Positions 11,001 to 32,000 are shown, numbered from the stretch's first letter. The stretch: DNA of 32,000 bases from Xylanibacter ruminicola 23 (GCF_000025925.1 NC_014033.1:1740001-1772000), one strand, 5' to 3'. Notes: generated by a model not told the origin, from the letters alone. Program-made: numbers and translations.

Positions 11001-11058
11001 TTCAGTCAACTTCCCACTGATGAAGCAGGTTGTAGTAGGTCTTAACGTAACTTTCTAA
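8038..11058 (+). CDS. SusC-like TonB-dependent outer-membrane transporter
   Basis: 1006 aa with a signal peptide and a carboxypeptidase-regulatory-like N-domain (ITGTVKDASGEPMIGVSVVV..TDFDGNFTI). Plug/TonB-box blocks are DEVVVVGYGTMKKKDLTGSV and ILKDAASTAIYGTKGANGVILITTKRG. The C-terminus ends ..GLNVTF. A SusD-like gene follows immediately. Confidence 0.9.
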   Translation: MNHQIKRASMALLLSVFCFVAYAQKTITGTVKDASGEPMIGVSVVVDGTTIGGVTDFDGNFTIQNVSEKAVLKISYIGFKEQKISVAGKNSFNVTMQEDAAALDEVVVVGYGTMKKKDLTGSVASVKTEDLAKVAGANALSAMQAKVPGVDLQQSGGGEAGAGVSMTLRGNRSLLAGNGPLVIVDGVEYGSTLDIPATDIESMDILKDAASTAIYGTKGANGVILITTKRGSAGKTKVSFNGYLSFNGATGIVKPMYGDKEVQRLIDKKNYETAAANGWAFSNTATAADVLTFKLDDGTETLSIYNDKSYTDWLDMILDNSVSQNYEVSVQGGNEKTNFNVSMAAMDDKGLMKGDEFNRYTGRINLDHNINRIVKIGASLSYTYKSNDKRNGGVYNQAQKMTTITHAYLNDGSINATPNPWYAAHCSPLLDEDGAYQRNIESSRFFGSGYLQLNPIKGLIVKSQFTLDRSTSRTGTYQDYHSQARYQSPTTTYIANDRSTGTKYVWQNTANYNKTIAKHDMTFLLGHEMSQYVSESSSISGVAGSESYKKSGFYDVSKIQSPLVSTGYTKSSMLSFFARANYSYDGKYLLQASVRADGSSVLAEGHKWGYFPSVSAGWRISEEKFMQGTKSWLDNLKFRVSWGLSGNSAISAYQTLATIQSIVPNSTDKAPMTMANPNLTWEKTAALDFGLDFSFLNGRIYGGIDYYNSKTYDLLYYKTAPASSVFTSTISNVGKTKGHGLEISLGAVPVKTNDFTWDLSASATFARDEVSELADGIEQVVSGTSILKIGEPVSAFYSYDMDGCWGIGEFDKYLAAHPNFEKPQADYGDPGTPKVIDVNGDDKIDDSDKIIYNRSPKAILGLNTTFTYKDFSLSVQTMARLGGYLNYSGYGLYLYDNANWGDLSYWTPENQGADIPSPGATGATPTFYKSAIQIQKADYFKIKDITLSYNLPKNLIKKVYMSNVRIYGSLKNYFTFSHFDNYDPERGGSVNFPLMKQVVVGLNVTF

Positions 11059-11079
11059 ATCAAATAATTGATTATCGAT

Positions 11080-13194
11080 ATGAAAAAGATATATAGTATG
11101 TTATTTGCTGCCGCTGCCATCAGCTTCGGCGCAACCTCCTGCTCCGACTTCCTGGACGAGGACAACAAGACCGGTGAGACTGCCGACCTGGCCTACAACA
11201 CCGTATCGGGTATCGACGGACTCATCCAGTCGGCTTATACCTACACACACGGTTGGTGGGGTAAGGAGCCATCACTGGGTCTTGCAGAAATGGGCTCAGA
11301 CCTGTTCTACTTTGGCTACGACAACAAGCAGAAGTCGATGCTGAAATACGATATCTCTGCCGAGGCTCTTGGTAGCAACGTAGCCGACAACCCTTGCTTG
11401 GACGAGTACTGGGAGATGTTCTACGCTGGCGTGGATGTATGTAACAACGCCCTGAAGTATGTGCCCGAGTGCAGCGTTATCGACGATAACAAGAAGGCCG
11501 CCTACCTGGGCGATGCTTACTTCCTGCGCGCTCTGTACTACTCTCAGATGGTAGCTATGTGGGGACCAATCCCTTACAATGCCGAGCCCATCAACGCGAT
11601 TAACAACAACCCTGTTCGTGTGCCCGAGGCTGAGGTTTATGGTAACATCCTGAACGACCTGAAGCAGGCCATGGACAACTATAAGAAGGCAAACATCATG
11701 GATGGCAAGTCGGCCACTGCCGATGGTCGTGCCTACTACTATTCAGCCGAGGCCCTCTATGCCCGCGTAGCCCTCTACGCTGCATCTTGGTTGGGTGCCA
11801 ATGCCGTTAGCGGTTATGGCAATCTCTATACCGAGGCTCTGAATGCTGCCAATGATGTGATCAACAACTCTGGCGCGAAGTTCTACAGCCGTTTCAGCGA
11901 CACTTGGAATATGAACAATGAAGAGGCAACCACCAATACCGAGAACCTCTTTGCCGTTCACTACTCTAACGATCTGAACGCCGGTCGCGACAACTGCGTA
12001 CCTTACCGTTTCTCAAGCGAGGGTACTGGCAATTTCAACTCACTCATCACCCGTACCGGTTATGGTCGTAACGGTGGTAGTGCCTCACTGCTGATGTTCG
12101 TATCACTCTGGAACAACGGTTGCGACGATATCGGTCCTAACGGACAGAAGAACAACTCTATCTTCTTCCGTATGGCAGCCGGTAAGACCACCATCAAGAG
12201 CAAGAGCACAGGTAAGGATGTTGAGGTTGGTAAGTACTACTCTCCTTACGGCCGTGGCTTCACCCGCTACCTGCCTTCACTCTATCTCTGGCAGATTCTG
12301 GATGAGATCAAGGGTACCGACCAGCGTTACAATGGCACCCTGCTCACCGAATATCGCGTACATCCCGACCTGGCTGGCAATGCTGCCAACTATCCTAAGA
12401 TGGCCGATCAGACTTACAAGACCTACGACGAGGCTTACGCCGAGGATGGTAACTACTTCAACGGTGGTGTGATTGGTATCCAGTACGCCCTGATGGATGG
12501 TAACTCAGCCGAGGGTCAGGCTCTGCAGGCCGAGGCCAAGGACAAGTATCGCTTGCAGTTCGCATTCGGTGGCGACATTCCTGTTTACACCTCTGGCGAT
12601 CCTGCTACAGCCCTGCCTACCGAGGGTGGAAAGGCTAAGAGCGATGTATATGGCGACGCCCGCTACAAGAGCGAGAAGATTGAAGGTCGCCGTTCGTTCC
12701 CTGGCATCAAGAAGTTCCTCGACGATCAGTACGAAGAGGATTATCCTACCTTCGATATCTCACACCGCGACATCATGGTACTGCGCTTAGCCGAGATGTA
12801 CCTGATTAAGGCCGAGGCTGAGCTGGCAACAGGCGGCGATGCCCTGAAGACCATCAACCAGCTGCGTGCAGCCCGCGCCATCGCTGGCAAGGACAACAGC
12901 ATCAGCGGTACTGTAACCATCGAGACTATCCTGAAGGAGCGCGCTATCGAGCTCTGCGGTGAGTACCAGCGCTGGTTCGACCTGAAGCGTACCCACACCC
13001 TGATCGACCACGTGAAGAAGTACAATGCTCAGGCAAGTGGCAACATTGCCCTGAAGCACTACTACCGTCCTATCCCACTCTCTGAGCTGGAGTCGGTTAC
13101 CAACCGTGGCGACGCAGCTGTGACACAGGATGCAGGTGGTGTACTGCAGTACAGCGCAACACAGGAAACCATGTGGCAGAACCCTGGTTATTAA
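11080..13194 (+). CDS. SusD/RagB-like outer-membrane glycan-binding lipoprotein
   Basis: The ATG at 11080 gives the lipoprotein signal MKKIYSMLFAAAAISFGATSC. SusD hallmarks are AYFLRALYYSQMVAMWGPIPY, VLRLAEMYLIKAEA and ERAIELCGEYQRWFDLKR. I do not favour the track start at 11068, which is a TTG. Confidence 0.85.
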   Translation: MKKIYSMLFAAAAISFGATSCSDFLDEDNKTGETADLAYNTVSGIDGLIQSAYTYTHGWWGKEPSLGLAEMGSDLFYFGYDNKQKSMLKYDISAEALGSNVADNPCLDEYWEMFYAGVDVCNNALKYVPECSVIDDNKKAAYLGDAYFLRALYYSQMVAMWGPIPYNAEPINAINNNPVRVPEAEVYGNILNDLKQAMDNYKKANIMDGKSATADGRAYYYSAEALYARVALYAASWLGANAVSGYGNLYTEALNAANDVINNSGAKFYSRFSDTWNMNNEEATTNTENLFAVHYSNDLNAGRDNCVPYRFSSEGTGNFNSLITRTGYGRNGGSASLLMFVSLWNNGCDDIGPNGQKNNSIFFRMAAGKTTIKSKSTGKDVEVGKYYSPYGRGFTRYLPSLYLWQILDEIKGTDQRYNGTLLTEYRVHPDLAGNAANYPKMADQTYKTYDEAYAEDGNYFNGGVIGIQYALMDGNSAEGQALQAEAKDKYRLQFAFGGDIPVYTSGDPATALPTEGGKAKSDVYGDARYKSEKIEGRRSFPGIKKFLDDQYEEDYPTFDISHRDIMVLRLAEMYLIKAEAELATGGDALKTINQLRAARAIAGKDNSISGTVTIETILKERAIELCGEYQRWFDLKRTHTLIDHVKKYNAQASGNIALKHYYRPIPLSELESVTNRGDAAVTQDAGGVLQYSATQETMWQNPGY

Positions 13195-13294: not shown

Positions 13295-16108
13295 TCAGGG
13301 CTGCAGGGTTACGGCCATCAATCCGATGATCACATCGTTGGATAGCGTTCGGATGGTGAGCGACTGCAAGCGTTTCTGCTGGTCGAGCTGCATCTCTAAC
13401 ATCTGACCAGCACCACCGGGGATTTCTCTACCGTACTCACCACCAAGCTGGATGATGCTACCTAAGTTACGGCTCACATCGCCCGTGCTGAAGCATACAC
13501 GATACGGACGGGGCTGCGGCGCGTTGAACGCCATGCCGTCCACATAGTAGTCCTGCTCGATGGGGCACCAGTTATCAGGATTACGCAGGGCAAGTGTGTC
13601 GGTCGTACCGTCGGTATAGGTCACAATCACCAAACCGTTGTCAATCCTGCTCTGCATGTGGTTAGTAGAACCAGCCATCAGCAGATAAGCCTTCTGGGCC
13701 TTGCCCTTCAAGGGGATGGTAACGGCATCGGGGTAGTTATCCCACAAACTGGTGTAGATGATGTTCTCACCCTTTTGCGGGGTACTGAAGGGGATGCCAA
13801 CCATGTTAAACACACCGTTCACGATTTTGGTACGGAACACCGAGTCGTTAATCTCAGCAGTCTTCTTAGGATGGCACCACTCACCAATGCCCTGCACGGG
13901 TATCTGCAACGTGGTGGTTTGTGGACGCGGACTGAGATATTGGTTCTTGAAGATATCGCTCACGCTGGCGTTAAAATACTTAGCCAGTTTCACGGGCTGA
14001 TAATCCAAGTCGAACTCTATCACCTGATGCTGGGCTGTGGTGCCCTTGATGTCTCGATACTGACCGCCGGACAGATTCTGACGGAAGATGATTTGCAGAG
14101 GCTGACGGAAGTTCTGGGTGATTTCAACACGCACCTTGCCATTCTTTCGCGTGTACTTGTACGACAGGTAGGGCGTTTTTACGCTGGCACTATCCCACTC
14201 TGCGGGGAACCCCGGACGGATGATGCACTTGCCATCGAGCGCCTGGGGGATGATGCCAAACAAGCCCTGCAACAGCGTTCGACTGCTGATGCCGATGCAA
14301 TCACCAAAGTCGCGATAACACTCACCACGGGCCGCATCGTAATGACTAATCTGTCCGAAGTTGGCCGGACTTTGTCCGTAGTACATCTGATCCATGATGT
14401 TGGCTTTCATCAGCTGGTAGCCCTCGTCGGCACGCCCGGCCTCAAAGTAAGCCAACGCCGTGTGCATCACCTCGGCAGCAGCCACGTTGTTAATGCTCCA
14501 GCTGTAGGGCATCCAGTTGCTGGTTGAGATGGTTTGTAAACCCGACTGCTCCACGGGGATGTGCGGAATGTTACGGGTTACCCAGTTGGTAGCCTGGTAA
14601 GCCTGTTCGGTGGTGCAAGCACCACAGTCAATCGGGGTATAGATGCTCCACACGGCAGGATTATCGTGGGTGCGTTTCAAGCCCATGCCATCCTGATACT
14701 CGGCCCACACGCCTGCTTTCGACAGCCACAAACGCTGGTTCATGGCCTGCAGGATAGCTTCGGCCTCATCACGATAGGGCTGCGCATCCTCGCCAATGAT
14801 TTCGGCGATACGGGCAGCCAACTTGTTGCCGCGATAGTTGTAGGCCGAACTATGAGTAACGGCACCACCACTGTAGTAGAGTGCATCGCTGGCCCAGATG
14901 CAGCAGTAGGCATCGTACAGATGGTCGCCATCGGCATCGTAGTTGCGTTTCTCCCATGCCAGATGCGACTTGAGTACAGGCCACATCTTACGCATATAAG
15001 CGGTATCGGCATCGTATTGGAAGTGCCACAGCAGCTCGTCGATGTAGTTCAGGTTCATATCGTAATGGTGCATCTGATCATTACGCTCTGGATTTCGACA
15101 GATGTAACCATCGCTGTACATTTGCGTGCCCCAACGCTTCTCGGCACGCGCCATGTTTAACGTTGAATCCTGCGAGGGATGCGGGATGGTGGCAGGCACA
15201 TGGGTTACCTGACTCTTGGCGTAGGCATCAAAATGACTCACTGCCCTATCCTGCCAACCCAACACATCGCCCAAGTAACCGGCACGCCAACCAGCCAGCG
15301 GCATACGCCAACCGATACAACCGTGCAGCCACGTTTGTCCGTCCCAATCGCCATCGGCAGCCAGCACCAGGGCACCACCTAAGGTATTGATGTAGGCATC
15401 GGGCGTAGTAAACTGTATGCGCGCAGCCAACTGCTCGTAATACTGCTGGGCAGCGGCAAACTGCTTGGCACCATCGGCAGCCGCCAGCGGTTTCATCACG
15501 TTCACATCCACCAGCATGTAAGCCGTGTTGCCATCCAGCGCCACTTCGGCGGTTTGTAGCACCTCGCCTTTGGGTTCCAGCACGCCTGGTTTATCGGCAC
15601 CGATATCGCCATTGCGACTGAGCTTAGGCTGAGCAATCTCGCACACCAAAGCCTTGATACGAGCCTTGCCAGCCAATGCGGGCGACGAGAACTGCCAGAT
15701 GGCCGCCTCGCTATCGGGCAAGGCGATGACACGGATGGTTAGCTGCACCCCACCCCAGCCCGTAAGCTGATACGTGCGCTGGCCATCCACGTAGCTGGCC
15801 GTACAAGGACTCACCTGCTCTAGCGGATAGTCGATGCCATCCACCTGAGCCACCAGTCGGATGTTACGATGATAGCCTTTCTTTACCACGGCAAAGATGG
15901 GGCGGTCGCTGGTTTCCAGGCGCCAGTCGGTATGACTGCCGTAGAGAGCACGCGTGTAACGGTTGTTACCATCTGCACAAACAAAAGCGCCCCCCGCACC
16001 TGGCTGGTATTGCAAGGTGCGAGGAGCGGGTGTGCCATGGGTTTGGCACATAGCGGATAGCGGGACCATGCCCACTAGTCCGACTATAGCTATCTGTAGC
16101 TTATTCAT
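13295..16108 (-). CDS. Secreted 937-aa protein of unknown family; candidate glycoside hydrolase (beta-rich N-terminus, helix-rich (alpha/alpha)6-like core, beta-rich C-terminal domain)
   Basis: The start is taken at ATG 16108-16106, giving the signal peptide MNKLQIAIVGLVGMVPLSAMCQ. This ATG overlaps the rhaD stop (TAATG). The 33 extra codons in the track ORF (to 16207) lie inside rhaD and are not signal-like. Core motifs are WLHGCIGWRMPLAGWRAGYLGD and YDAYCCIWASDALYYSGG. The function is inferred from context only. Confidence 0.7.
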   Translation of the reverse strand: MNKLQIAIVGLVGMVPLSAMCQTHGTPAPRTLQYQPGAGGAFVCADGNNRYTRALYGSHTDWRLETSDRPIFAVVKKGYHRNIRLVAQVDGIDYPLEQVSPCTASYVDGQRTYQLTGWGGVQLTIRVIALPDSEAAIWQFSSPALAGKARIKALVCEIAQPKLSRNGDIGADKPGVLEPKGEVLQTAEVALDGNTAYMLVDVNVMKPLAAADGAKQFAAAQQYYEQLAARIQFTTPDAYINTLGGALVLAADGDWDGQTWLHGCIGWRMPLAGWRAGYLGDVLGWQDRAVSHFDAYAKSQVTHVPATIPHPSQDSTLNMARAEKRWGTQMYSDGYICRNPERNDQMHHYDMNLNYIDELLWHFQYDADTAYMRKMWPVLKSHLAWEKRNYDADGDHLYDAYCCIWASDALYYSGGAVTHSSAYNYRGNKLAARIAEIIGEDAQPYRDEAEAILQAMNQRLWLSKAGVWAEYQDGMGLKRTHDNPAVWSIYTPIDCGACTTEQAYQATNWVTRNIPHIPVEQSGLQTISTSNWMPYSWSINNVAAAEVMHTALAYFEAGRADEGYQLMKANIMDQMYYGQSPANFGQISHYDAARGECYRDFGDCIGISSRTLLQGLFGIIPQALDGKCIIRPGFPAEWDSASVKTPYLSYKYTRKNGKVRVEITQNFRQPLQIIFRQNLSGGQYRDIKGTTAQHQVIEFDLDYQPVKLAKYFNASVSDIFKNQYLSPRPQTTTLQIPVQGIGEWCHPKKTAEINDSVFRTKIVNGVFNMVGIPFSTPQKGENIIYTSLWDNYPDAVTIPLKGKAQKAYLLMAGSTNHMQSRIDNGLVIVTYTDGTTDTLALRNPDNWCPIEQDYYVDGMAFNAPQPRPYRVCFSTGDVSRNLGSIIQLGGEYGREIPGGAGQMLEMQLDQQKRLQSLTIRTLSNDVIIGLMAVTLQP

Positions 16109-16941
16109 TAGCAGGGGCGCTTCTTGGGCAGATTGAATGCGTCCTGCACTTCCTTCATCTGTGCGTCGGTCATGCCATCGGGCTCCGAACCCATCGACTT
16201 GGCACACATATAGATGTTGGCTGCCTTACAGAGCACGTCGGTCTGGTCGAAGGCATCCATGATATCGGTACCAACAGCCACGGTGCCATGCTTCTCCCAC
16301 AGCACCACGTCGTGGGTCTTAATCTGCTCGAGTGTAGCCTCGGCCAGTGCTACCGACGATGGCATAGCGTAAGGTACGATACCGATGCCGAGTGGTGCGA
16401 ATGCCAGTGTCTCGGGAATCATCGACCACAGCACGCGTGTCATCTCATCGCCCTTCAGGAAACGCTGGATATGACTCATAGCCACCAGCTCGATGGGGTG
16501 CGTATGCAGGGTAGCCTTGTAGGTAGAACCTGTCTCCAACAGATAGTTGTGCAGCGCCAGGTGTGTGGGCAGCTCCGATGTGGGTGCCACGGGCTCGTCG
16601 GCAATAATCTCGTAGCTGGCGCAGTCGTCGCAGATGCGGATGATACTACCGTTCTGCATAGGCTGCTTAGCCAGATCGCGCATACGCTTGCCTGTACCCT
16701 TGCAATAAAAATACTTTCCCTTAAGCTGAGGCAGTGTCATACCAATCTGCTTCACAGGGGCGATGGCAGGCATCTGCTTGCAGGCATCGTCCATATACTC
16801 GGTTACGTTCACGGTAATGTTACCACCGTTACGCTCAGCCCAACCTTTCTGCCAAAGATAACCTGTTACCTCGGCTATCTGGTCAACAACCGCTTTCAAA
16901 CCTTCGCGGCCGTCCAAAATGCTATTAAACTGTTTCTCCAT
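16108..16941 (-). CDS. rhaD: Rhamnulose-1-phosphate aldolase (class II aldolase)
   Basis: 277 aa that aligns by eye with E. coli RhaD at GWAERNGGNITV, PTSELPTHLALH, LHTHPIELVAMSH and VLWEKHGTVAVG. Confidence 0.9.
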   Translation of the reverse strand: MEKQFNSILDGREGLKAVVDQIAEVTGYLWQKGWAERNGGNITVNVTEYMDDACKQMPAIAPVKQIGMTLPQLKGKYFYCKGTGKRMRDLAKQPMQNGSIIRICDDCASYEIIADEPVAPTSELPTHLALHNYLLETGSTYKATLHTHPIELVAMSHIQRFLKGDEMTRVLWSMIPETLAFAPLGIGIVPYAMPSSVALAEATLEQIKTHDVVLWEKHGTVAVGTDIMDAFDQTDVLCKAANIYMCAKSMGSEPDGMTDAQMKEVQDAFNLPKKRPC

Positions 16942-18256
16942 ATCTTTCTTTTGTTATTTGTTCCAATGATTTACCACGGGTGTTAGGCATACCGATAAGA
17001 CCAACCACGAGCGATGCCAGCAGCAGGGCCACCATGCAGTAGGCAGCCAGTGTAAAGCCCTCGCCATTGTTGCCATAGATAAAGGTGAACACCAGTCCCC
17101 ATACAGCCGACAGGCCACGAACGATGAAGAACATCAGTCCCTGCGCACCGGCACGGAACTTGGCAGGGAACAGCTCCGAGCCCCACAAGGCGTAGAACAC
17201 CTGTACCGAGCTACCGTTGTTAACACCCCACAGGATGGTGAACACCCAGATACCTGCGATGGTTGACACGCCACCACCGATGATAAGAATCCACGCGGTG
17301 AGCGCTGCTGCCAAACCGAACACATAGAAGAAGCGGTGTGCCACCTTATCAACCATAAACGAGATGATAAACGTGGTTACCACTACAAACACCCAACTAA
17401 TGCAACTCAGCATGTTGGCTGCCTCGTTGCTCAGTCCGCCAGCGGTCTCGTAAATGTGTGGCATAAAGAATCCCATCACACTGGCCACCAGGTTCCAGGT
17501 AAGGTAGATGGCTGCCAGGAAAGCCACTGTCTTCACAGCAATCTTATTGGTAAAAAGCAGCTTGATGTTATCTACTATACTGCTCTGGTCCTTCTCCTTG
17601 TTGGCGGTAAACTCGGCGCTCTCCTCCAGCTGGCGCTGCAGGTTCCAGGCAATGAAAGCCACCACAAACAGGGTAGCGAACACTACACGCGAAGAGAATA
17701 CCTCGACAGCAGCCTGAGCCGCATCGGCACCGATGATATCGTGGGCGATAGCCTCGACCGGACCGTACAGATAACCGCCCGGCGCAAACAGCATACCGAA
17801 CAGCAGGATGCACATCGGACCTACGCCCCACGACATCTGCGAGATACAGATGTTACGACCGCGGTTGTTCACCTCCGAACTCTCAGAGATATAGGTCCAC
17901 GAGGCGGGCACACCGATACCTACCGAGATACCTGTTACCAGGAATCCAGCCAGCAGCATGGGGAAGTTCATCGACAGCATGATGATGAGCACACCCGTCA
18001 TATACACCAGCAGGTTGTAGGTAAAGATGAACTTACGACCGAACTTATCGGCCAGGAAACCACCGATGATAGCACCGATGGCGGCACCCAGCGCATTGGC
18101 ACTGAGTGCGTTCAGCCAACCTAAGTGCATCTCGCTCAAACCCAAGTAGTTCTGCCACAGCGTTACGCCACTGGCACCAGCAACGATGGCGCCTGCATCC
18201 AGGTAGTTATTGAGAGACACGGCCAGCGTGCTCTTCAGCGAACTCGACTTAGCCAT
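16925..18256 (-). CDS. MFS sugar-porter-family transporter (candidate L-rhamnose:H+ symporter)
   Basis: 443 aa and about 12 hydrophobic segments. Sugar-porter motifs are GGFLADKFGRK, ISESSEVNNRGR, PAKFRAGAQG and NTRGKSLEQI. It is embedded between rhaA and rhaD. Confidence 0.85.
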   Translation of the reverse strand: MAKSSSLKSTLAVSLNNYLDAGAIVAGASGVTLWQNYLGLSEMHLGWLNALSANALGAAIGAIIGGFLADKFGRKFIFTYNLLVYMTGVLIIMLSMNFPMLLAGFLVTGISVGIGVPASWTYISESSEVNNRGRNICISQMSWGVGPMCILLFGMLFAPGGYLYGPVEAIAHDIIGADAAQAAVEVFSSRVVFATLFVVAFIAWNLQRQLEESAEFTANKEKDQSSIVDNIKLLFTNKIAVKTVAFLAAIYLTWNLVASVMGFFMPHIYETAGGLSNEAANMLSCISWVFVVVTTFIISFMVDKVAHRFFYVFGLAAALTAWILIIGGGVSTIAGIWVFTILWGVNNGSSVQVFYALWGSELFPAKFRAGAQGLMFFIVRGLSAVWGLVFTFIYGNNGEGFTLAAYCMVALLLASLVVGLIGMPNTRGKSLEQITKERYGETV

Positions 18257-18260
18257 CGTC

Positions 18261-19511
18261 TTAGCGTTTTGAAGTCACATCCTGCTCGTACTGCTGGATG
18301 GCAGCGATAAACTCCTCGCCTACAGGCACGTTGTTCTTCAGGTTGAAGTAGTCGAACACAGCACCGAAAGGCAGACTCTTAGCCTCTTCCATCAGGGCCA
18401 GACGCTCAAAGTTCTGTCCGTTGTCCTCGTACTTACGCAGCAGCTCCTTTGGCTCCAACAGGGCCTGCAGGATGCACTTCTGCGTGGCACGGGCACCGAT
18501 GATATAAGCACCGATACGATTGATTGAGGCATCGAAGTAGTCGAGACCCACGTGGGCACGATCGAGCGCATCGCTACGTACCAGCTCCTTGAACAGGTCG
18601 AGTGTCTGGTCGTTCATGATGGTTACGTGGTCAGAGTCCCAACGTACTGGGCGACTTACGTGCAGCATCAGCTCGGGCACATACATCAGCAGGGTTGATA
18701 CAAAGTCGGATACGTTCTCGGTCTGCTCGTAGTGACCGGTATCGATGGTGTACATCTGCTTGCGGGTAGCACAGTAGGCGGTGTAGAAATCATGACTGCC
18801 CACGGTGTAGCTCTCCAGTCCGATACCAAACAGTTTGGCCTCGAAGCAGTTCTTTACGCCATCCAGCTTCTCCTCCATAATCTCATCGAGCGAGGCAGCC
18901 AAGATTTCGCGGTACTTCTTGCGCTGTACGGGCATGTCCTTGCTTCCATCGTGTACCCAGATGTTCATGATACAGGGATCGTTCTGCGCCTTACCCATGG
19001 CATCGGCGATACGACGGCAACGCTTGGTGTGCTCAATCCAGAAGTCGCGGATGGCCTTATCGGGGTTAGAAAGAGTGAGACTGCCGCTCTTGGGGTGCGA
19101 GAAGCTCGACGAGTTGAAGTCGAGTTTCATGTTCTGCTCCTTGGCCCAGTCGATCCAGCTCTGGAAGTGCTCCACGTCACACTGGTCGCGATCTACGAAC
19201 TTTCCACCAAAGTCGCCATATATCTCGTGCAGGTTCAGGCGGTGGTTACCAGCCAGCAGGGTCTTTACAAATTCGATATCCTGGCGCACCTCGTCGATAT
19301 TACGGGCACGTCCGGGGTAGTTACCAGTGGTTTGGATACCACCACTCAGGGCCTCGTTACGCTCAAAGCCCACTACATCATCAGTCTGCCAGCAGTGCAG
19401 CGAAATCTGCTGTGCCTGCAGTTGGTTCAACACGGCGTCGGTATCAACGCCTACGGCAGCGTAGCGCTCTTTGGCTACGGCATACGCTTTTTCAATTAGT
19501 TCTGTTTTCAT
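18261..19511 (-). CDS. rhaA: L-rhamnose isomerase
   Basis: 416 aa and collinear with E. coli RhaA, for example SLHCWQTDDV.GFE, GGIQTTGNYPG.ARN, LHVSRPVRWDSDHV and GLDYFDASINRI. Confidence 0.95.
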   Translation of the reverse strand: MKTELIEKAYAVAKERYAAVGVDTDAVLNQLQAQQISLHCWQTDDVVGFERNEALSGGIQTTGNYPGRARNIDEVRQDIEFVKTLLAGNHRLNLHEIYGDFGGKFVDRDQCDVEHFQSWIDWAKEQNMKLDFNSSSFSHPKSGSLTLSNPDKAIRDFWIEHTKRCRRIADAMGKAQNDPCIMNIWVHDGSKDMPVQRKKYREILAASLDEIMEEKLDGVKNCFEAKLFGIGLESYTVGSHDFYTAYCATRKQMYTIDTGHYEQTENVSDFVSTLLMYVPELMLHVSRPVRWDSDHVTIMNDQTLDLFKELVRSDALDRAHVGLDYFDASINRIGAYIIGARATQKCILQALLEPKELLRKYEDNGQNFERLALMEEAKSLPFGAVFDYFNLKNNVPVGEEFIAAIQQYEQDVTSKR

Positions 19512-19517
19512 TGTTTT

Positions 19518-21002
19518 CTATTTATTATTAGTTATGTTCAGATATGTCTCATAAGCCTCATCCCAAGCAGTCTGGTCGGTGGGTTCGTACTTCACCAGAT
19601 CAAGACTGTTGGCAATGATGCGGCGCATCTCCCAGATATCATTTACCAGTCCGGCAGCCTGGGCCTGCAGCATGATGTTGCCGATGGCGGTACCCTCTTG
19701 TGGACCGGCCAGTACGGTTGCACCGGTGGCGTTGGCGGTAAACTGGTTCAGATACTTGTTCAAACTGCCACCACCAATCACGTGCAGTGTCTTTAATTCG
19801 AATGGAGCAAACTCCTGCAGCCACTGGAACACCTGTTTGTAGCGCAGAGCCAGCGAGTCGAAGATACAACGACAGATTTCGGCCGGTGTTTCGGGCACAG
19901 GCTGATGGGTGTCGCGACAGTACTGCTGGATGGCACCAATCATGGATTTGGGCGATGCAAACAGCTGGTCGTCGGGGTTGATAATTGAGCGGAATGGCTC
20001 AACCTGCATGGCCGAACCCTGCAGCTCGGGATGCGACAACTTGCGCACCTCGTCGGGCCACTCCAGTCGGCAGCGCTCGTACAGCCACATACCACAGATA
20101 TTCTTCAGGAAACGGGTGGTACCCTCTACGCCACCCTCGTTGGTAAAGTTGCGATCGTACGAGAGGTCGTTGATGATGGCATCCTTGGTCTCGATACCCA
20201 TCAGGCTCCAGGTACCGCTACTCAGATAGGCAAACTGCTCGTTCTTGGCAGGCACGGCTGCCACAGCCGAACCGGTGTCATGACCAGCCACAGCTATCAC
20301 GGGCACAGCGCCCAGTCCGGTCAGCTGCTGCACCTCGTCGGTCAGCACACCAATCCGGGTGCCAGGCATCACCATCTTGCCAAACTTACCGCGGTCTAAT
20401 CCTACCGATGCCAGAAGGCGCTCGTCGAGCTGCTTGGTACGTGGGTCGAGCAACTGCGAGGTAGATGCGATGGTATATTCGCACACGGCCTCGCCCGTCA
20501 GCATCCAACTCAGTGCATCGGGCACAAACAGTATCTGCTTGGCGTGCTTCAGCGCGCTGTTATTCTCCTTGCGCATGGCGTAGAGCTGGAACAGCGAGTT
20601 AAAGAACATAAACTGTATGCCTGTTACATCATACACCTCTTTCTTTGTAACGACGTTCTGCAGATAATCGTCCATCGCCTCGAAGGTGATGGGATCGCGG
20701 TAGGCACGCGGATTACGCAGGATGGCGTTGTCCTCGCCTATCATCACAAAGTCCACACCCCAGGTATCGATACCGATGCTCACGATATCCAGTCCGCGGC
20801 GTGCCACCTCTTTCAGGCCCTTGATAATCTCGAAATACAGGGCGTAGATATCCCAGTAGTAATGACCGCCCTGCACAATCAGGTTATTGGGAAAGCGGGT
20901 CACCTCTTCCAGTTCGAATTTGTTATCGTTGATACGGCCGATGATGGTTCGACCGCTGGTAGCACCAAGGTCTACCGAAAAAAAGTATTTTTGATTATTC
21001 AT
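19518..21002 (-). CDS. rhaB: Rhamnulokinase (FGGY carbohydrate kinase family)
   Basis: 494 aa with the FGGY N-terminal block FSVDLGATSGR, plus GIDTWGVDF, HDTGSAVAA and IGGGSLN. It lies 6 nt upstream of rhaA. Confidence 0.9.
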   Translation of the reverse strand: MNNQKYFFSVDLGATSGRTIIGRINDNKFELEEVTRFPNNLIVQGGHYYWDIYALYFEIIKGLKEVARRGLDIVSIGIDTWGVDFVMIGEDNAILRNPRAYRDPITFEAMDDYLQNVVTKKEVYDVTGIQFMFFNSLFQLYAMRKENNSALKHAKQILFVPDALSWMLTGEAVCEYTIASTSQLLDPRTKQLDERLLASVGLDRGKFGKMVMPGTRIGVLTDEVQQLTGLGAVPVIAVAGHDTGSAVAAVPAKNEQFAYLSSGTWSLMGIETKDAIINDLSYDRNFTNEGGVEGTTRFLKNICGMWLYERCRLEWPDEVRKLSHPELQGSAMQVEPFRSIINPDDQLFASPKSMIGAIQQYCRDTHQPVPETPAEICRCIFDSLALRYKQVFQWLQEFAPFELKTLHVIGGGSLNKYLNQFTANATGATVLAGPQEGTAIGNIMLQAQAAGLVNDIWEMRRIIANSLDLVKYEPTDQTAWDEAYETYLNITNNK

Positions 21003-22314
21003 ATATCATATGTTGTAGTTGTTCTTTCGAAACGGGGTTCTTGGCAAAGGCCAGCGGCTTGCCGTCGATGGTAAAATCTACCAGCTCGTACTTATCCGAT
21101 GTCTTCACGTCGTAAGGCGTCGGGGTTTCCACCTGGATGTTACGCATCACGATGTTGTTGCATCTCGACAGCGGCATGTCGTCGCGCTGCTCGGGCTTAA
21201 AGAACTGTGTCCAGGGGTGGATAAACAAAAAGCGCTTGCAGTGACCGGTGATGTTCTCAACCAGCACATACTCGTAGTGCTGCGGCGTGTCGGGACGCAT
21301 TTTCAACCACAGCACACGGTCGGCACGCTCGGTGTAGCAGTTGCGCAGAATCACGTTGCGGTCGTGCAGCGACTCCGAACCCAGCGTCAGGCAGCCGTGT
21401 ACCTTTCCGTAGTGACAGTTCTGAATCAGTATGCGCTCGCAATCGCCGTTGGTCTCGTCCTTGTCGGCCCAGGTTCCCTTACCGCCTTTCAGCACCACGG
21501 CATCATCGTTCACGTGCATATAGCAGCCGTTGATGAGCACATCGGTGCAGGCGTCGATATCGATGGCATCGCTCGATGGCGCGCCACGTGTGGGGTCGGG
21601 CTCCCAGATATTCTCGGTGGGGGCATAGATGTAGCAATCCAGATAGCGCACGTGGTTGCTCTTGTACACATGGTTAGTCCAGAAGGGCGAGTTAACCAGA
21701 TGCACATCCTGAATGGTGACGTTTGTTGAGTTCGACACATAGGTGAGTCGTGGGCGCTGCGCATCCTTGTTGGTACACTGGGGGTTCCACTTGCGACGAA
21801 TCCAGAACTCCTGCCAGTAGTTCAGTCCGTTACCATCGATGGTACCCTTACCACTGATGGTAAAACCGTCCAGTCCGTCGGCATTCACCAGGGCACAGAA
21901 GTAGGTGCAGGTTTCGCCCTCGATACGGGTCTTGATATAGGGGAAATCGATGATGCGATCGGAGCCCTTCAATCGTCCGATTACATGCAGGTGCGTACCC
22001 TGCTTAAAGAACAAGGCGCCTGTAAGGAAAGTGCCCTCGGGGATAACCACCACGCCACCACCCTCTTGGGCAGCACGGTCGATGACAGCCTGGATGGCCT
22101 TGGTCTGCACCACGGTAGAATCGCGACGCACACCAAAGTCGGTAATCACATACTGCTTACCCAGCTTAGCCACATCAACTTTAGTAGTATCCTTAAACCA
22201 CGCGTCCATCACGGTCTGGTCGGGCCAAACCTCAACGGCGGGTTTCTTCTTGGGTTTTGCAACTCCCGTAGCAACCAGCGCCACGGCAAGCAACAAGAGC
22301 ACTATTCTTCTCAT
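20995..22314 (-). CDS. Secreted GH28-like beta-helix glycosidase (divergent; rhamnogalacturonan/galacturonan hydrolase candidate)
   Basis: 439 aa with the signal peptide MRRIVLLLLAVALVATGVA. The N-terminal block IQAVIDRAAQEGGGVVVIPEGTFLTGALFF parallels the GH28 module at 3042. Degenerate GH28 blocks are SSDAIDID, NDDAVVLKGGKG, HGCLTLGSE and LWLKMR. Its stop overlaps the rhaB start by 8 nt (ATGAATAA). Confidence 0.7.
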   Translation of the reverse strand: MRRIVLLLLAVALVATGVAKPKKKPAVEVWPDQTVMDAWFKDTTKVDVAKLGKQYVITDFGVRRDSTVVQTKAIQAVIDRAAQEGGGVVVIPEGTFLTGALFFKQGTHLHVIGRLKGSDRIIDFPYIKTRIEGETCTYFCALVNADGLDGFTISGKGTIDGNGLNYWQEFWIRRKWNPQCTNKDAQRPRLTYVSNSTNVTIQDVHLVNSPFWTNHVYKSNHVRYLDCYIYAPTENIWEPDPTRGAPSSDAIDIDACTDVLINGCYMHVNDDAVVLKGGKGTWADKDETNGDCERILIQNCHYGKVHGCLTLGSESLHDRNVILRNCYTERADRVLWLKMRPDTPQHYEYVLVENITGHCKRFLFIHPWTQFFKPEQRDDMPLSRCNNIVMRNIQVETPTPYDVKTSDKYELVDFTIDGKPLAFAKNPVSKEQLQHMIYE

Positions 22315-22341
22315 TTTTCAGTTATTTGTTTTAATCGCCTA

Positions 22342-22349
22342 CAAAATTA
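22342..22349 (-). promoter_or_regulatory. Weak internal -7 box candidate (TAATTTTG on the minus strand) in the 122-nt GH2/GH28 gap
   Basis: Matches TAnnTTTG 27 nt upstream of the ATG at 22314. I saw no well-spaced -33 TTTG. Confidence 0.3.
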
Positions 22350-22436
22350 CGGATTATTTCCGAATTAGCAGCGATACAAATTGTACTAATTGCTATCTTA
22401 TCGTACGGATTTAGTTATTTTTGGCGTACAATACGC

Positions 22437-28954: not shown

Positions 28955-28986
28955 TTTGGATTTTCATAAAATACTTTGTATATTTG
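28955..28986 (+). promoter_or_regulatory. Bacteroidetes-type promoter candidate for the lipoprotein / PBP-C13 operon
   Basis: TTTG at 28955-28958 and TATATTTG at 28979-28986 with 20 nt between them. The -7 box lies inside the track ORF's first codons, which argues that the real start is the ATG at 29012. Confidence 0.55.
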
Positions 28987-29011: not shown

Positions 29012-30073
29012 ATGACGAGAAACAATCTTTTGACACTATTACTGGGTATTTTTATCATTTTAACAGGCTGTACGAAAGACGGCGATACGATATACCAGAT
29101 AAATCCTGACGAGGAGAAGCCAAGCACGGCTCCGCTCGTCACCGTGATCTATGGCCCTAACAGTCTGGGCGACCGCTCGTATTGCGACAAGATTTACAGG
29201 GGTATTGAAGCTTCGGCCACCAAACATGGCATCAGAACCCTACAGTTGATGCCTGAGAGTACGGAGCAGGGCCTGGCCTATCTCGAGATGATGTTCCAGC
29301 AGATGGAGAATGCGCAGGACAGTGTGCGCCGTCTGTTCATCACGCCCAGTCCCGTTTACGATGAGTTTATCCGTAAGAACAACCGCCGTTTGGAGAACAA
29401 CCCTAATGCCGACCTGCTGTATATGGAGACCACTACTCCGCTTGAGGGCAAGGGCTCCACGCTCTACATCGACTATTACGGTGCGATGTATATGGCAGGA
29501 TGCTTCAGCAAATATGCGTTCACTATTGATCTGTCGCTTTTGATACTGGCCAATCCTTACACGCAATCGGTGGTAGAGGCTGGAGAGGGCTTTGTGGATG
29601 GTTTTAACGATAGCGAAACTAAATGGGAATGGAAAAAACCAATCAAGATAAAGTATCTGAGCGACGAACCCGGTGGCGGATTCCAACTGGCTGACACCAC
29701 TGCACTGCGCATATACCAAGAGGTTGCTAACAACGAGGAAGACGCTAATATTTGTGTGGTGCCCGTTTGCGGCGGTGCCATGAATGCCTTCTACCGCATC
29801 CTACCTCCTTTAAGTAAATATATATGCATTGATGATTATATCTCCCTGAATGGTCCATTTAACTACGGTAACGTCATCAAGCATATAGACAGGGTACTGG
29901 ACGACTATATAGAGAAATGGTTAAACGCCACGATGCCCAAACACCAGACGTTTGGACTGGCTGATGGTGGCACGGAGTTCAATTTTGGCGAAGATTTCGG
30001 TTTCAAAGATTCAGTAGTGGACAGTGTGCGCCAAGTAGCCATCAGAAAGGAGGGGGAACGGTATGGTAAGTGA
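29012..30073 (+). CDS. Lipoprotein with a BMP/PnrA-like (periplasmic-binding-protein fold) sequence pattern
   Basis: The ATG at 29012 gives MTRNNLLTLLLGIFIILTGC (lipobox). It is collinear with BMP-family landmarks: VIYGPNSLGDRSYCDKIYRGIEA (compare G..DKSFNQ....G...A), YGAMYMAGCF, VPVCGGAMNAFY, ICIDDY and FGLADGG. Confidence 0.6.
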   Translation: MTRNNLLTLLLGIFIILTGCTKDGDTIYQINPDEEKPSTAPLVTVIYGPNSLGDRSYCDKIYRGIEASATKHGIRTLQLMPESTEQGLAYLEMMFQQMENAQDSVRRLFITPSPVYDEFIRKNNRRLENNPNADLLYMETTTPLEGKGSTLYIDYYGAMYMAGCFSKYAFTIDLSLLILANPYTQSVVEAGEGFVDGFNDSETKWEWKKPIKIKYLSDEPGGGFQLADTTALRIYQEVANNEEDANICVVPVCGGAMNAFYRILPPLSKYICIDDYISLNGPFNYGNVIKHIDRVLDDYIEKWLNATMPKHQTFGLADGGTEFNFGEDFGFKDSVVDSVRQVAIRKEGERYGK

Positions 30074-32000
30074 AAAGTTAAAAGTGAAAAGTGAAAAATT
30101 TGCTACCGCAATCCTAGGCTTCATTTTGATGCTGACTGGCTGTAAGAGTGAGGATGACGTGATAGTGTATAAGGACTCGCGTCGATGGGTGGAGAAGACG
30201 GTGGCTGTGGTGGCCCCATTGAACGATCCCATTATGAAGGCCCGACTGGAGCGTACGGCTGAGTGGATGCTCAGCAGTCTGCACAACGCCCAGTTGCACG
30301 ACACGCTCTGCATCGACCTGAAACTGGAGTGGTACGATGAATACGGCACCGACCTGAAAGCGTTAGGCGAACGGTTGGCTAACCGTGATGACCTGATGGC
30401 CGTCATCGGCCCCTTCGACAGCGACAACGTTGACATACTGGCTCCCTACTGCCAGCAGACCCACAAGCCGCTCATCCTGCCCACTGCCACCTGCGAAACC
30501 GTGATACGCCGCTTTGCCATTACCAGCACGGGCGATGGGCAGCAGCCCTTCCTCTGGTCGCTCACTGAGACCGATGTGTCGCTCTCGGAGGTGATGTTGA
30601 GTATGTATGCAGCCAACATCCAAAGGGGCAAAATGTATGCTAAGTTTTCTGATTATTCCGCACTATTCACGCCCGACGGTAAATTCGGTCAGACATTCTT
30701 TGAATGGGGACCTTTCTCGGCTACCGAACTGGGCATAGGCTTCAAGTATAACGAGCAGTATTCCAGCCCGGACATGCTCATACAGAAAATGAAAGCGTAT
30801 TACGATGATATCAGCGAAACGTTCGGCCTCTTGACTATACCTGCCTTTGTGGTTTTGGAGAAACCAGAGCCTCTTCCACAGATCAGGAGAATCCAAGCTC
30901 AACGTTGGGGGGGGATGGATATTATCGAAGAAATAAAGGAGTGGGAAGCTGATGGCGAGGATATCTTCGAATACAGCAAATCTTCTCTGTATAAATTAAC
31001 AAACATGTTCTCACCCGTCTATTTTGTATTATCGAATCTTACTGATGAAGCGATAGCGGCATTCGATATATACGACAGGACCATTATAGAACTCTATGAG
31101 GGCTTCTCGCCCTATGCCGACCCGATGACAGGCTTTGAGATGAGCTACGAGGCGCGCTACAACACGAAGCCTACCTTTGCCGAGTGTAAATTCTACGATG
31201 CCCTGTTGCTCTCGGCCTTTGCCGCCAACTACATGGAGCACCATCAGGAGGTGGATAACCTCAACGACGCCATCATCGCCATCACCACCACCGACAACTT
31301 CCTGTCGGGCTATGCCTGGAGCGAAACGGGTATGGAACTATACCTTGCAGCCTTGGAGCAGGGACAACTCGTTGGCTTTAAGGGCGCTTCGGGTCCTGTG
31401 CAGTTCGACAAGGAGTGCTACACCGCAGCCCTCAACACCACCTATGTGAACTGGATGATTAGAGACGGGCATGTGTACCACTCGGGCTATTACAGCCGGT
31501 CGGGCAATGCCCAGACGGCGAAGACACTGGCCTCGTGGAACTGGTTGGTGGAGAATGCCGAGGAGATGTTCGACAATACCTACGGCAAGAACATGCCCCC
31601 CATCAACTACCCCACCCTTACCGATCAGTATGCTGTGCTGGTGCAGGGCAGTAACGGCTGGAGCAACTACCGCCATGAGGCCGACGTGCTGAACATCTAT
31701 CAGATGCTGAAGGCTGGCGGCTACGACGACGACCATATCATATTGGTGAGTGCCGACGATGTAGCTAATGCCTCGGAGAATACCGACCGCGGTGCCGTGC
31801 GTACCGATCCTAATGGGGGCAATCTGCGCGAGGGCGCTGTGATAGACTATAAGAATGCCGACCTGACACCGGCCGACATCGTGAATATTCTGAAGGGCAA
31901 CAAGACCGACCGTACGCCAGTGGTATTGCCCAAGGACGAGGGGCAGAACGTGTTCTTCTTCTGGAGCGGACACGGGCGCAGCAAGGCCACCAACGGTGTG
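30063..32000 (+). CDS. Lipoprotein: type-1 periplasmic-binding-protein-like (LivK/ANF-receptor-like) region fused to a legumain-type C13 cysteine peptidase domain; 3' end beyond the window
   Basis: The frame is open from ATG 30063 to base 32000 (checked codon by codon); it is absent from the track because it has no stop. Signal/lipobox is MVSEKLKVKSEKFATAILGFILMLTGC. PBP1 landmarks are VAVVAPLND... and LMAVIGPFDSDNVDILAPYCQQTHKPLILPTAT. From nt ~31626 the legumain landmarks are AVLVQGSNGWSNYRHEADV, RTDPNGGNL, DYKNADLTPADIVNILKG and VFFFWSGHG (catalytic His-Gly). The ATG overlaps the upstream gene by 11 nt. Confidence 0.8.
   Translation, partial: MVSEKLKVKSEKFATAILGFILMLTGCKSEDDVIVYKDSRRWVEKTVAVVAPLNDPIMKARLERTAEWMLSSLHNAQLHDTLCIDLKLEWYDEYGTDLKALGERLANRDDLMAVIGPFDSDNVDILAPYCQQTHKPLILPTATCETVIRRFAITSTGDGQQPFLWSLTETDVSLSEVMLSMYAANIQRGKMYAKFSDYSALFTPDGKFGQTFFEWGPFSATELGIGFKYNEQYSSPDMLIQKMKAYYDDISETFGLLTIPAFVVLEKPEPLPQIRRIQAQRWGGMDIIEEIKEWEADGEDIFEYSKSSLYKLTNMFSPVYFVLSNLTDEAIAAFDIYDRTIIELYEGFSPYADPMTGFEMSYEARYNTKPTFAECKFYDALLLSAFAANYMEHHQEVDNLNDAIIAITTTDNFLSGYAWSETGMELYLAALEQGQLVGFKGASGPVQFDKECYTAALNTTYVNWMIRDGHVYHSGYYSRSGNAQTAKTLASWNWLVENAEEMFDNTYGKNMPPINYPTLTDQYAVLVQGSNGWSNYRHEADVLNIYQMLKAGGYDDDHIILVSADDVANASENTDRGAVRTDPNGGNLREGAVIDYKNADLTPADIVNILKGNKTDRTPVVLPKDEGQNVFFFWSGHGRSKATNGV
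30069..30096 (+). repeat. Heptanucleotide tandem array AGTGAAA AGTTAAA AGTGAAA AGTGAAA across the gene junction
   Basis: Read directly: four units with one mismatch. Unit 1 contains the upstream gene's TGA stop (30071-30073). The array covers codons 3-12 of the PBP-C13 gene. Confidence 0.85.
30907..30914 (+). repeat. G8 homopolymer tract inside the PBP-C13 gene
   Basis: Read directly: ...aacgttGGGGGGGGatgg... It encodes RWGGM and is the longest G/C homopolymer I noticed in the window. Confidence 0.95.

Follow-up and report, generated by a model that had tools for sequence, protein, structure and literature searches.

A conserved lipoprotein pair of Xylanibacter ruminicola 23 with a binding-protein domain fused to a legumain-type peptidase: a candidate surface processing protease for adjacent lipoproteins

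What does a legumain-type peptidase do when it is carried on a predicted lipoprotein, fused to the fold of a solute-binding protein, and encoded in overlap with a second binding-protein-like lipoprotein? The question is raised by two open reading frames, ORF1 and ORF2, at the end of a 32,000-nt stretch of the Xylanibacter (Prevotella) ruminicola 23 genome (GCF_000025925.1, NC_014033.1:1740001-1772000; hereafter the window, with coordinates counted from its start). ORF2 corresponds to ADE83205.1 (UniProt D5ET27) of strain 23, with ‘peptidase, C13 (legumain) family’ as its sole annotation, and ORF1 is annotated as ‘hypothetical protein’ or ‘basic membrane protein A’. The answer that we favor, at slightly below an even chance, is that the module is a dedicated surface Asn-specific processing protease for adjacent lipoproteins, cutting members of a small lipoprotein family, named lpS here, after an Asn.

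A preliminary description of the window, made from the sequence alone, had placed two lipobox proteins at this position with an 11-nt overlap and had noted that the window ends just past a catalytic His; both observations hold, the end falling nine codons after His637. Full-length ORF2 (788 residues, including the missing 142) was taken from L001, a public contig of identical sequence (X. ruminicola BPTT01000001). The features of the pair within the window are as follows.

29012 (ATG) to 30071-30073 (TGA), + strand: ORF1, a 353-residue lipoprotein with a predicted Bmp/PnrA-type fold, a type-1 periplasmic binding protein (PBP) fold
29012-29071, + strand: signal peptide and lipobox IILTG↓C20 of ORF1 (Cys codon 29069-29071), followed by CTKDGD
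30063 (ATG) to the window end at 32000 (codon 646 of 788), + strand: ORF2, a lipoprotein with predicted type-1 PBP and Peptidase_C13 domains
30063-30143, + strand: signal peptide and lipobox LMLTG↓C27 of ORF2 (Cys codon 30141-30143), followed by CKSEDD
30063-30073, + strand: 11-nt overlap, the start of ORF2 lying within the end of ORF1
30162-31496, + strand: predicted type-1 PBP (Peripla_BP_6/ANF_receptor-like) domain of ORF2, residues ~34-478, containing VIGPFDS...PLILPTATSE
31497-31613, + strand: interdomain linker of ORF2, residues ~479-517, with several Asn; predicted local distance difference test (pLDDT) score <50 at residues 479-491
31614-32000, + strand: N-terminal half of the legumain-type catalytic domain of ORF2, residues 518-646, with N535, R537, H538 and His637
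31971-31973, + strand: codon CAC of catalytic His637 (WSGHG), aligned to the legumain catalytic His

A legumain-type protease and two binding-protein folds

By sequence and by model, the catalytic domain of ORF2 is a member of peptidase family C13, as first proposed. The Pfam model Peptidase_C13 (PF01650, cut-off 22.8 bits) matches the part encoded in the window at 1.6e-29 (103.7 bits) and full-length ORF2 at 6.6e-46 (157.4 bits), and a sequence search aligns mouse and human legumains to residues 523-774 at 2.5e-28. The AlphaFold2 model of ORF2 (mean pLDDT 83) adopts a caspase-like alpha/beta fold over this domain and matches human legumain (4n6o_A) in Foldseek with an E-value of 3e-19, a template modeling (TM) score on the target of 0.91 and a root-mean-square deviation of 1.9 A. 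His637 (WSGHG) and Cys688 (LEPC) are in register with the legumain catalytic His (HG) and Cys (EAC). The preliminary description had allowed for a pseudo-protease should the sequence beyond the window lack the Cys; Cys688 is present in the extended protein, and that objection therefore fails. Alignment further places putative equivalents of the legumain S1-pocket and oxyanion residues at N535, R537, H538, E686, S715 and D730, where R537, H538, E686, S715 and D730 are assigned to what we take to be the S1 pocket of legumain (Arg44, His45, Glu187, Ser215 and Asp231). H637, C688, R537, H538, E686, S715 and D730 are invariant across 38 homologs (56-91% identity), position N535 being Asn in 34 and Asp in the other 4, and H637, C688 and R537 remain invariant in 60 distant members of the family (27-47% identity). 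With the catalytic dyad and an Asn-type S1 pocket intact at the level of sequence and fold, the protease looks active. ORF2 ends ~14 residues past the catalytic domain and is not a legumain proper, because the C-terminal LSAM prodomain of the legumains is absent.

The ~450 residues that precede the protease had been described as a type-1 PBP domain, an assignment that is confirmed through the family rather than through the single protein. ORF2 itself stays below the Pfam gathering scores (ANF_receptor, 4.6e-5 and 23.1 bits against a cut-off of 25.4; Peripla_BP_6, 0.0066 and 16.6 bits against 31.7), sequence and profile searches of the PDB gave no significant matches for this N-domain or for ORF1, and all 50 matches listed by Foldseek for the full ORF2 model against the PDB are C13 proteins, which would mask matches of the N-domain. 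With clusters formed at 50% identity, a profile of residues 34-505 gathers 416 cluster representatives at E ≤1e-3 and 307 at ≤1e-10; fusion proteins are found at E ≤1e-25, and almost all the matches listed are 690-820 residues long. All 60 divergent members tested carry C13, and Peripla_BP_6 is detected in 32 (best 6.2e-31), ANF_receptor in 39 (best 2.4e-17) and Peripla_BP_5 in 3. Among viral structures (BFVD), the best match of the ORF2 model is a ‘Periplasmic binding protein [Catovirus]’ (3.6e-8), and an ‘Extracellular ligand-binding receptor [Tupanvirus]’ also matches (4.6e-6). On the family profile, the Pfam matches of the divergent members and the BFVD matches, we regard the fold as settled: by sequence and model, the N-domain is a divergent type-1 PBP. 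The model itself has alternating beta-alpha units at residues 41-477 that form a two-lobed alpha/beta fold, whereas hhalign of the family alignment against E. coli LivJ gave only a 42-column local match around VIGP...PTAT (E 0.19). Two residues of the domain, R149 and D379, are invariant or nearly so in the 60 distant members.

ORF1 is likewise best understood through its relatives, which agree with its earlier description as BMP/PnrA-like. The Pfam search of ORF1 returned no match of its own, including to Bmp (PF02608), and 14 of its 38 homologs do match this model (best 1.8e-6), as do the partner genes in L082 and L084/L085. The AlphaFold2 model of ORF1 (pLDDT 83.5) finds PnrA, BmpD and RfuA as its best Foldseek matches (E 1e-13 to 3e-11, TM 0.62-0.76), and the motifs GDRSY, YxDYYG and K290/D293 are invariant or nearly so among the homologs. 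From sequence and model together, ORF1 is a divergent Bmp-fold protein and the second type-1 PBP fold of the module. NCBIfam returned nothing meaningful for ORF1, ORF2 or the genes downstream, apart from TlpA/ResA-like matches of a 184-residue protein discussed below.

Both proteins probably lie on the outer surface rather than in the periplasm. The sequence following the lipobox Cys reads CK(S/T/Q)EDD in the ORF2 family and CTK(D/E)GD in the ORF1 family, and we place both at the surface because these sequences resemble the lipoprotein export signal of Bacteroidetes, with its optimum C-X-K-(D/E)2-X (PMC5080379).

A conserved gene pair with no transporter attached

A one-genome-per-species scan yielded 119 relatives, and 80 loci were examined, mostly from metagenome-assembled genomes of rumen Prevotellaceae and other Bacteroidales, with a few from Phocaeicola plebeius, Bacteroides and Mediterranea. 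In 73 of the 80, the gene immediately 5′ of the C13 gene is Bmp-like; the exceptions are mostly truncated contigs, with two true ones (L070 and L013). The overlap between the two genes is exactly -11 nt in 33 of 68 scored gene pairs and -13/-14 in 9 more. In X. ruminicola 23, this 11-nt overlap suggests translational coupling, to judge from the gene layout. A perfect AGGAGG stands 9 nt 5′ of the ORF2 start codon, which is unusual given that Bacteroidetes mostly do without Shine-Dalgarno-led initiation, and it may aid coupled translation.

The architecture, whose distribution the preliminary description had left to be surveyed, extends beyond these loci. Treponema sp. JC4 (WP_009105393.1) carries a Bmp plus PBP-C13 pair with a 14-nt overlap among flagellar genes. 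Three loci (L037, L043 and L071) hold a divergent second Bmp-like plus PBP-C13 pair (28% identity, 4-nt overlap) beside the main one; this second pair (e.g. L071 2089-5459) is flanked by lipoproteins of 414-441 residues (cluster c25). In a distant member (L082, 1-5954), three MACPF lipoproteins are encoded directly upstream of the Bmp plus PBP-C13 pair, which overlaps by -14. Bacteroidales MACPF toxins are known to need activation by a protease. A metagenomic protein of 1211 residues (P0242), in which an ORF1-like and an ORF2-like sequence are fused, was considered as evidence that the two interact and was set aside: it keeps the internal signal peptide and lipobox, and is most likely a gene call that reads through, or shifts frame, across the overlapping stop and start.

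The earlier statement that no ABC transporter genes are visible up to the window end now reaches much further, with none in the window, none downstream in L001, and no recurrent ABC permease or ATPase among the 721 neighboring ORFs clustered from the 80 loci. A TonB-dependent receptor occurs near the pair in only 4 of the 80 loci, and no SusC/SusD-type or other uptake genes recur. ORF1 and ORF2 thus form a conserved two-lipoprotein module with no link to an ABC transporter, and neither ORF1 nor the N-domain of ORF2 behaves genomically like a transporter component. The pair could still be viewed as ordinary solute-binding proteins of ABC import with a protease fused by chance, since the Bmp and Peripla_BP_6 families are typically the binding proteins of ABC transporters, and source annotations read ‘basic membrane protein A’ and ‘ABC-type branched-chain amino acid transport’. 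Given the absence of recurrent permease and ATPase genes, and a fusion and gene pair conserved across phyla with the catalytic site intact, this view is hardly credible.

Two PBP folds with no transporter also invite the idea of a ligand-gated or sensor protease, in which a small molecule bound to one or both folds switches the protease on and the module serves to relay or process a signal from the environment. The invariant or nearly invariant residues listed above (R149 and D379 in the N-domain; GDRSY, YxDYYG and K290/D293 in ORF1) would fit retained binding clefts. No ligand is known, however, and gating of this kind is compatible with a processing protease rather than exclusive of it; as a separate explanation of the module, we consider it improbable.

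Co-operonic lipoproteins with an invariant Asn before a variable tail

Extension of the sequence beyond the window, as the preliminary description had proposed, brings in not only Cys688 but also the rest of the operon. In L001, ORF2 is followed at gaps of 4-18 nt by a 209-residue lipoprotein, a 184-residue TlpA-like protein, a 233-residue paralog of the first, and a 544-residue lipoprotein (lp544). The 209- and 233-residue proteins define the small lipoprotein family lpS, for which neither Pfam nor NCBIfam holds a model.

L001 12377-13006: lp209, an lpS protein of 209 residues, 9 nt downstream of ORF2, outside the window
L001 13023-13577: TlpA/ResA-like thioredoxin-fold lipoprotein of 184 residues with a CMDC motif (D5ET29), between the two lpS genes
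L001 13582-14283: lp233, an lpS protein of 233 residues, ~1.2 kb downstream of ORF2, outside the window

By single-linkage clustering, lpS occurs in 48 of the 80 loci, and only two other families recur more often near the pair. Alignment gives a common layout of a lipobox with an acidic linker, a conserved body of ~150 residues, the motif (D/T)(F/W)G-G-N, and a variable tail. Of the 61 proteins in the lpS cluster, 36 have the [FW]GGN motif, in every case at a distance of 20-50 residues from the C-terminus, as against 4 of 660 other neighborhood proteins. A database search with lp209 returned 427 homologs, all unannotated; among the best 120 of these, the motif is FGGN in 117 and FGRN in 3, so that the Asn is invariant. 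What follows the Asn is of a different character: the tails of the 117 FGGN proteins span 24-51 residues in 78 distinct sequences, 115 of the 117 have exactly two Cys, spaced C-x13-C in 99 of 106, and mean pairwise identity is 0.35 in the tail and 0.77 in the body. A second, partly conserved site of the form ‘FGN(D)/W(E/T)N’ is found in the body near residue 128.

A thiol-disulfide partner is often encoded near lpS proteins with Cys-containing tails. TlpA-like genes occur only in loci that have a Cys-tail lpS (6 of 16, against 0 of 64; Fisher p 2.7e-5, an optimistic value as the loci are related). Three lpS homologs, chosen for reverse look-up only for lying on long contigs, all led to compact lpS-TlpA-Bmp-C13 operons with gaps of at most ~30 nt and the -11 overlap. 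In one of these loci (L087), a DsbD-like gene follows the C13 gene. A small thioredoxin gene beside the Bacteroides and Mediterranea members (cluster c20) was examined as a possible component and rejected, as it encodes an ordinary cytoplasmic WCGPC thioredoxin that is not part of the system.

A second class of lpS tails has no Cys (e.g. AGDDSTQGTGISNEGATEDNR), and this class co-occurs with giant BspA-type leucine-rich repeat (LRR) proteins in 15 of 17 loci. The giant LRR_5 proteins, of ~2000-2280 residues, are found at L004, L010, L012, L025, L026, L064, L065 and others, and their C-termini, judged by eye, resemble the C-terminal domain of type IX secretion. Single linkage also drew into the lpS cluster a group of lipoproteins of 170-185 residues that end in ...RWPE(E/D)GN|GF(L/I)KDIL..K and are encoded, near the pair, invariably after a DUF3667 zinc-ribbon membrane protein (L011, L030-L032, L046, L059, L060, L068 and L073). 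Their ‘N-G-F/L’ resembles the recognition motif of OaAEP1; their homology to lpS is doubtful, and they were left out of the core lpS statistics.

The simplest reading of this arrangement is cleavage after GGN, because a protease with predicted Asn specificity shares an operon with proteins whose only invariant junction feature is Gly-Gly-Asn. ORF1 and ORF2 would be exported to the outer surface and act there as one complex, and ORF2 would cut lpS, its proposed target in X. ruminicola 23 as in numerous Prevotella of the rumen, after the Asn of GGN, at Asn177 in lp209 and Asn183 in lp233. Since lpS is anchored by its N-terminus, such a cut would free the tail as a peptide. The TlpA-like protein, as a thiol-disulfide oxidoreductase, would form the single disulfide of the tail or rearrange it. 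More speculatively, docking of the carrier or its tail could fall to the two PBP folds, which might alternatively gate the active site on binding of a small ligand, and the released tails could act as bacteriocin-like or signaling peptides. Of the preliminary functional interpretation, which had offered either a ligand-gated surface or periplasmic protease or a signal-processing module, it is the second alternative that gains from the co-operonic lipoproteins with an invariant Asn before a hypervariable tail, and the interpretation as a whole is partly supported.

Taken to its full extent, this line of thought has rumen Prevotella producing diffusible, hypervariable, disulfide-looped peptides of ~25-50 residues through a pathway not yet described, in which they are carried to the surface as lipoprotein tails, oxidized by the TlpA-like protein, released by a legumain-type cut after Gly-Gly-Asn and recognized or gated by the PBP folds, probably for strain-level antagonism or signaling. 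We regard this extended version as conceivable yet rather doubtful.

Several observations weigh against the module being a dedicated lpS-processing protease. The link between protease and lpS is drawn from gene neighborhood and a matching P1 residue, and the surface location from sequence motifs. An Asn-tail lpS lies within reach in only 36 of the 80 loci, and none was seen beside the Bacteroides, Phocaeicola and Treponema members; since so many loci and lineages show no such protein, lpS is not a universal substrate but at most one class of substrate, and the module must have targets besides it. With mostly Asn in place of D730 in the 60 distant members, the family may not be uniform in its P1 specificity. 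GGN might owe its conservation to a turn in the structure and not to cleavage. The loci are not phylogenetically independent, which makes the Fisher p-values optimistic, and the roles given to the PBP and Bmp folds are speculative. Finally, eukaryotic legumains need acidic pH for stability.

Four other explanations were ranked by how well they fit the operon structure, in the order of a nutritional protease, a transpeptidase, the ligand-gated protease discussed above, and an arrangement in which lpS proteins are inhibitors. A general nutritional protease would be a surface Asn-specific endopeptidase serving a proteolytic rumen species in the digestion of feed protein, with the LivJ- and Bmp-like folds capturing the resulting amino acids or peptides, or holding substrate proteins, and the neighboring lipoproteins unrelated to it. 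An intact and probably surface-exposed protease domain is what this explanation calls for, as judged from sequence and model, and it accommodates the many loci without lpS, the concentration of the family in rumen Prevotellaceae and Treponema, and the homology of the N-domain to branched-chain amino-acid binding proteins, after which some members have been named by the Joint Genome Institute. Bulk digestion would not need a strictly coupled partner, however, the pair lacks recurrent SusC/SusD-type or uptake genes and has a TonB-dependent receptor nearby in those 4 loci only, and the tight lpS-TlpA-Bmp-C13 operons, which were found from the lpS side, are left unexplained. We therefore consider a purely nutritional role unlikely.

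The same tail that suggests release of a peptide could instead be a leaving group. In a transpeptidase or ligase of the GPI8 or plant-ligase kind, the enzyme would cut after Asn and join the lpS body, or some other protein, to an amine acceptor offered by one of the two PBP-type folds, that of the N-domain or that of the Bmp-like partner. Transamidases and ligases do belong to family C13, sequence and fold searches with ORF2 bring up GPI8 and plant ligases, the nucleophile could come from the two ligand-binding folds, and the lpS C-terminus resembles a glycosylphosphatidylinositol (GPI) attachment signal, with a site at a small residue, then 6-12 residues of acidic spacer and then a hydrophobic stretch. 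Yet lpS is already lipid-anchored at its N-terminus, and a leaving-group signal should be conserved, whereas the tail is the most variable part of the protein (0.35 against 0.77 identity). Transpeptidation is accordingly distinctly unlikely in our estimate.

The lpS proteins might, lastly, be not substrates but inhibitors or immunity proteins that occupy the S1 pocket with the Asn of a reactive-site loop, in the manner of cystatin E/M and the mycocypins. Inhibitors of legumain present an Asn on their reactive loop, and such complexes (4n6o and 8ae5) are among the fold matches; in Bacteroides, small lipoproteins that inhibit C10 proteases are transcribed together with them, and lpS paralogs have expanded to as many as four copies in one locus (L021). 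The position of the Asn argues otherwise: it lies after Gly-Gly at the junction of domain and tail rather than in a conserved loop, with hypervariable sequence beyond it, and the co-occurrence of TlpA with Cys tails is hard to explain for an inhibitor. We consider this reading very improbable and retain the processing of lpS as the preferred one.

Setting of the locus, related systems and meaning

Signals for expression of the pair were read from the sequence around ORF1 and the ORF1/ORF2 junction.

28955-28958 and 28975-28978, + strand: TTTG motifs 5′ of ORF1
28979-28986, + strand: candidate -7 promoter element TAtaTTTG, 26 nt 5′ of the ORF1 ATG
30048-30053, + strand: AGGAGG within the 3′ end of ORF1, 9 nt 5′ of the ORF2 ATG

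The candidate element matches TAnnTTTG, which we take to be the -7 promoter consensus of Bacteroidetes. A scan of the operon for sigma-70 promoters and terminators gave counts at the level of shuffled sequence.

The remainder of the window is occupied by other functions. At its left edge, trpC (IGPS), trpF (PRAI) and trpA are consecutive (709-2934). They are followed by a pectin/rhamnogalacturonan utilization locus, headed by a 1596-residue ORF with glycoside hydrolase (GH) domains GH28 and GH88 (3042-7832), and including SusC (8038-11058), SusD (11068-13194), a transporter of the major facilitator superfamily (16925-18256) and RhaA (18261-19511), after which come an FGGY kinase, GH28, GH2, RhaM, a GDSL esterase and an aldo-keto reductase. 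A 970-residue ORF on the - strand inside this polysaccharide utilization locus (13295-16207) has no Pfam match at 1e-5. The utilization locus is unrelated to the ORF1-ORF2 pair, because the neighbors of the pair vary between genomes.

On the other side, the operon in L001 is flanked by genes for a PIN toxin, Fic, Peptidase_M15_3 and phage-like pRha/ANT proteins (16071-22367), which are also found at L014, L018 and L019, and the clusters to which these genes belong (c11, c17, c29/c42 and c30) adjoin the Bmp-C13 pair in other genomes too. This suggests that the module repeatedly adjoins one mobile or prophage element. Clusters c38-c41 proved to be housekeeping genes and were discarded. PADLOC, run on the operon proteins, returned only a weak generic caspase match for ORF2 (0.0018), and a reading of the operon as a gasdermin-like defense system was dropped on this negative result.

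In outline, a likeness to the gasdermin operons does exist. In bacterial gasdermin operons, an adjacent clan-CD protease, fused to a sensor-type domain, removes a short C-terminal peptide from a protein of ~200 residues, which recalls lpS and ORF2. Here, however, all components would be exported lipoproteins, and the lpS body is smaller than the gasdermin pore-forming domain. A second parallel lies in plants, where the maturation of cyclotides such as kalata combines a precursor with a Cys-containing peptide next to an Asn, a protein disulfide isomerase (PDI) and an asparaginyl endopeptidase (AEP). The trio is alike in outline, but in lpS the Asn stands on the opposite side of the peptide, the tail has just one disulfide frame (C-x13-C) and the carrier is a bacterial lipoprotein, so that the resemblance would be convergent at most.

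Closer relatives are found within the enzyme family itself. Legumain (MEROPS C13, clan CD; human, PDB 4aw9 and 4n6o) shares the catalytic fold, the His-then-Cys dyad and the predicted S1-pocket and oxyanion equivalents. Unlike legumain, to which it is ~26% identical, ORF2 is bacterial, predicted to be N-terminally lipidated and free of the LSAM prodomain, and it has a preceding PBP domain of 450 residues and an obligate Bmp-like partner gene. GPI8 and the plant peptide asparaginyl ligases (butelase-1, OaAEP1 and VyPAL2) belong to the same family and act at a small or Asn residue before a C-terminal signal peptide, a layout like that of the lpS C-terminus. In lpS, however, the Asn precedes the variable peptide, so that head-to-tail cyclization of the tail is not possible, and partner subunits of a GPI transamidase are absent. 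The two binding-protein folds have known counterparts as well. ORF1 shares its predicted lipoprotein type-1 PBP fold with PnrA, BmpD and RfuA (Bmp, PF02608), but differs in having no PF02608 match of its own, no adjacent ABC genes and a protease gene as its partner. The ORF2 N-domain is, through its divergent family members, homologous to the LivJ-type and ANF_receptor proteins (PF13458 and PF01094), but its own Pfam scores are below threshold, and it is fused to a protease with no transporter or receptor partner.

The nearest functional analog may be fragipain, a lipidated clan-CD protease of family C11 from B. fragilis that cuts the cell-bound protoxin Fab1 at R200↓A201, after which the C-terminal Fab1 fragment is secreted and is antibacterial (PMC8406203). 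C11 proteases related to fragipain activate the BcpT and BSAP toxins (bioRxiv 10.64898/2026.08.05.742979). The ‘C13’ that appears in a BSAP-1 preprint denotes 13-fold symmetry and not the peptidase family. The fragipain/DpnB group, with Fab1, BFT, BcpT and BSAP as its targets, thus resembles the module in that a lipidated clan-CD protease of Bacteroidales frees C-terminal fragments, as ORF2 is proposed to do, and the distant family member linked to MACPF lipoproteins fits the same toxin-processing theme. ORF2 differs in belonging to C13 rather than C11, in its predicted specificity for Asn rather than Arg, and in its extra PBP domain and Bmp partner. Its candidate substrates share its operon; the gene for fragipain, by contrast, is of the housekeeping kind and has no linkage to that for Fab1. 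By analogy, the system would work like the toxin-processing proteases of the fragipain type while not being a member of the C11 family.

The preliminary description knew of no characterized example of this architecture, and the literature, at incomplete coverage that makes this an absence of evidence only, likewise yielded no functional description of any bacterial C13 peptidase, of a PBP-C13 fusion or of these accessions. The family is large, with >300 clusters at the 50% identity level; its members abound in the rumen and keep strictly to one architecture. If the proposed function is correct, it would be the first assigned to a bacterial C13 peptidase, and would add to the C11 fragipains of Bacteroidales a new class of processing proteases at the cell surface, in which PBP folds have been reused as protease accessory modules. 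A cultivable type strain, X. ruminicola 23, would then offer a testable pair of protease and substrate with exact predicted cleavage sites, and an Asn-specific bacterial enzyme working at neutral pH could be of use in biotechnology, whether for proteolysis or for peptide ligation. For the biology of the rumen, the module would be a bacterial, convergent counterpart of the plant logic of precursor, PDI and AEP, and might supply new, hypervariable secreted peptides with a part in shaping competition within this community.

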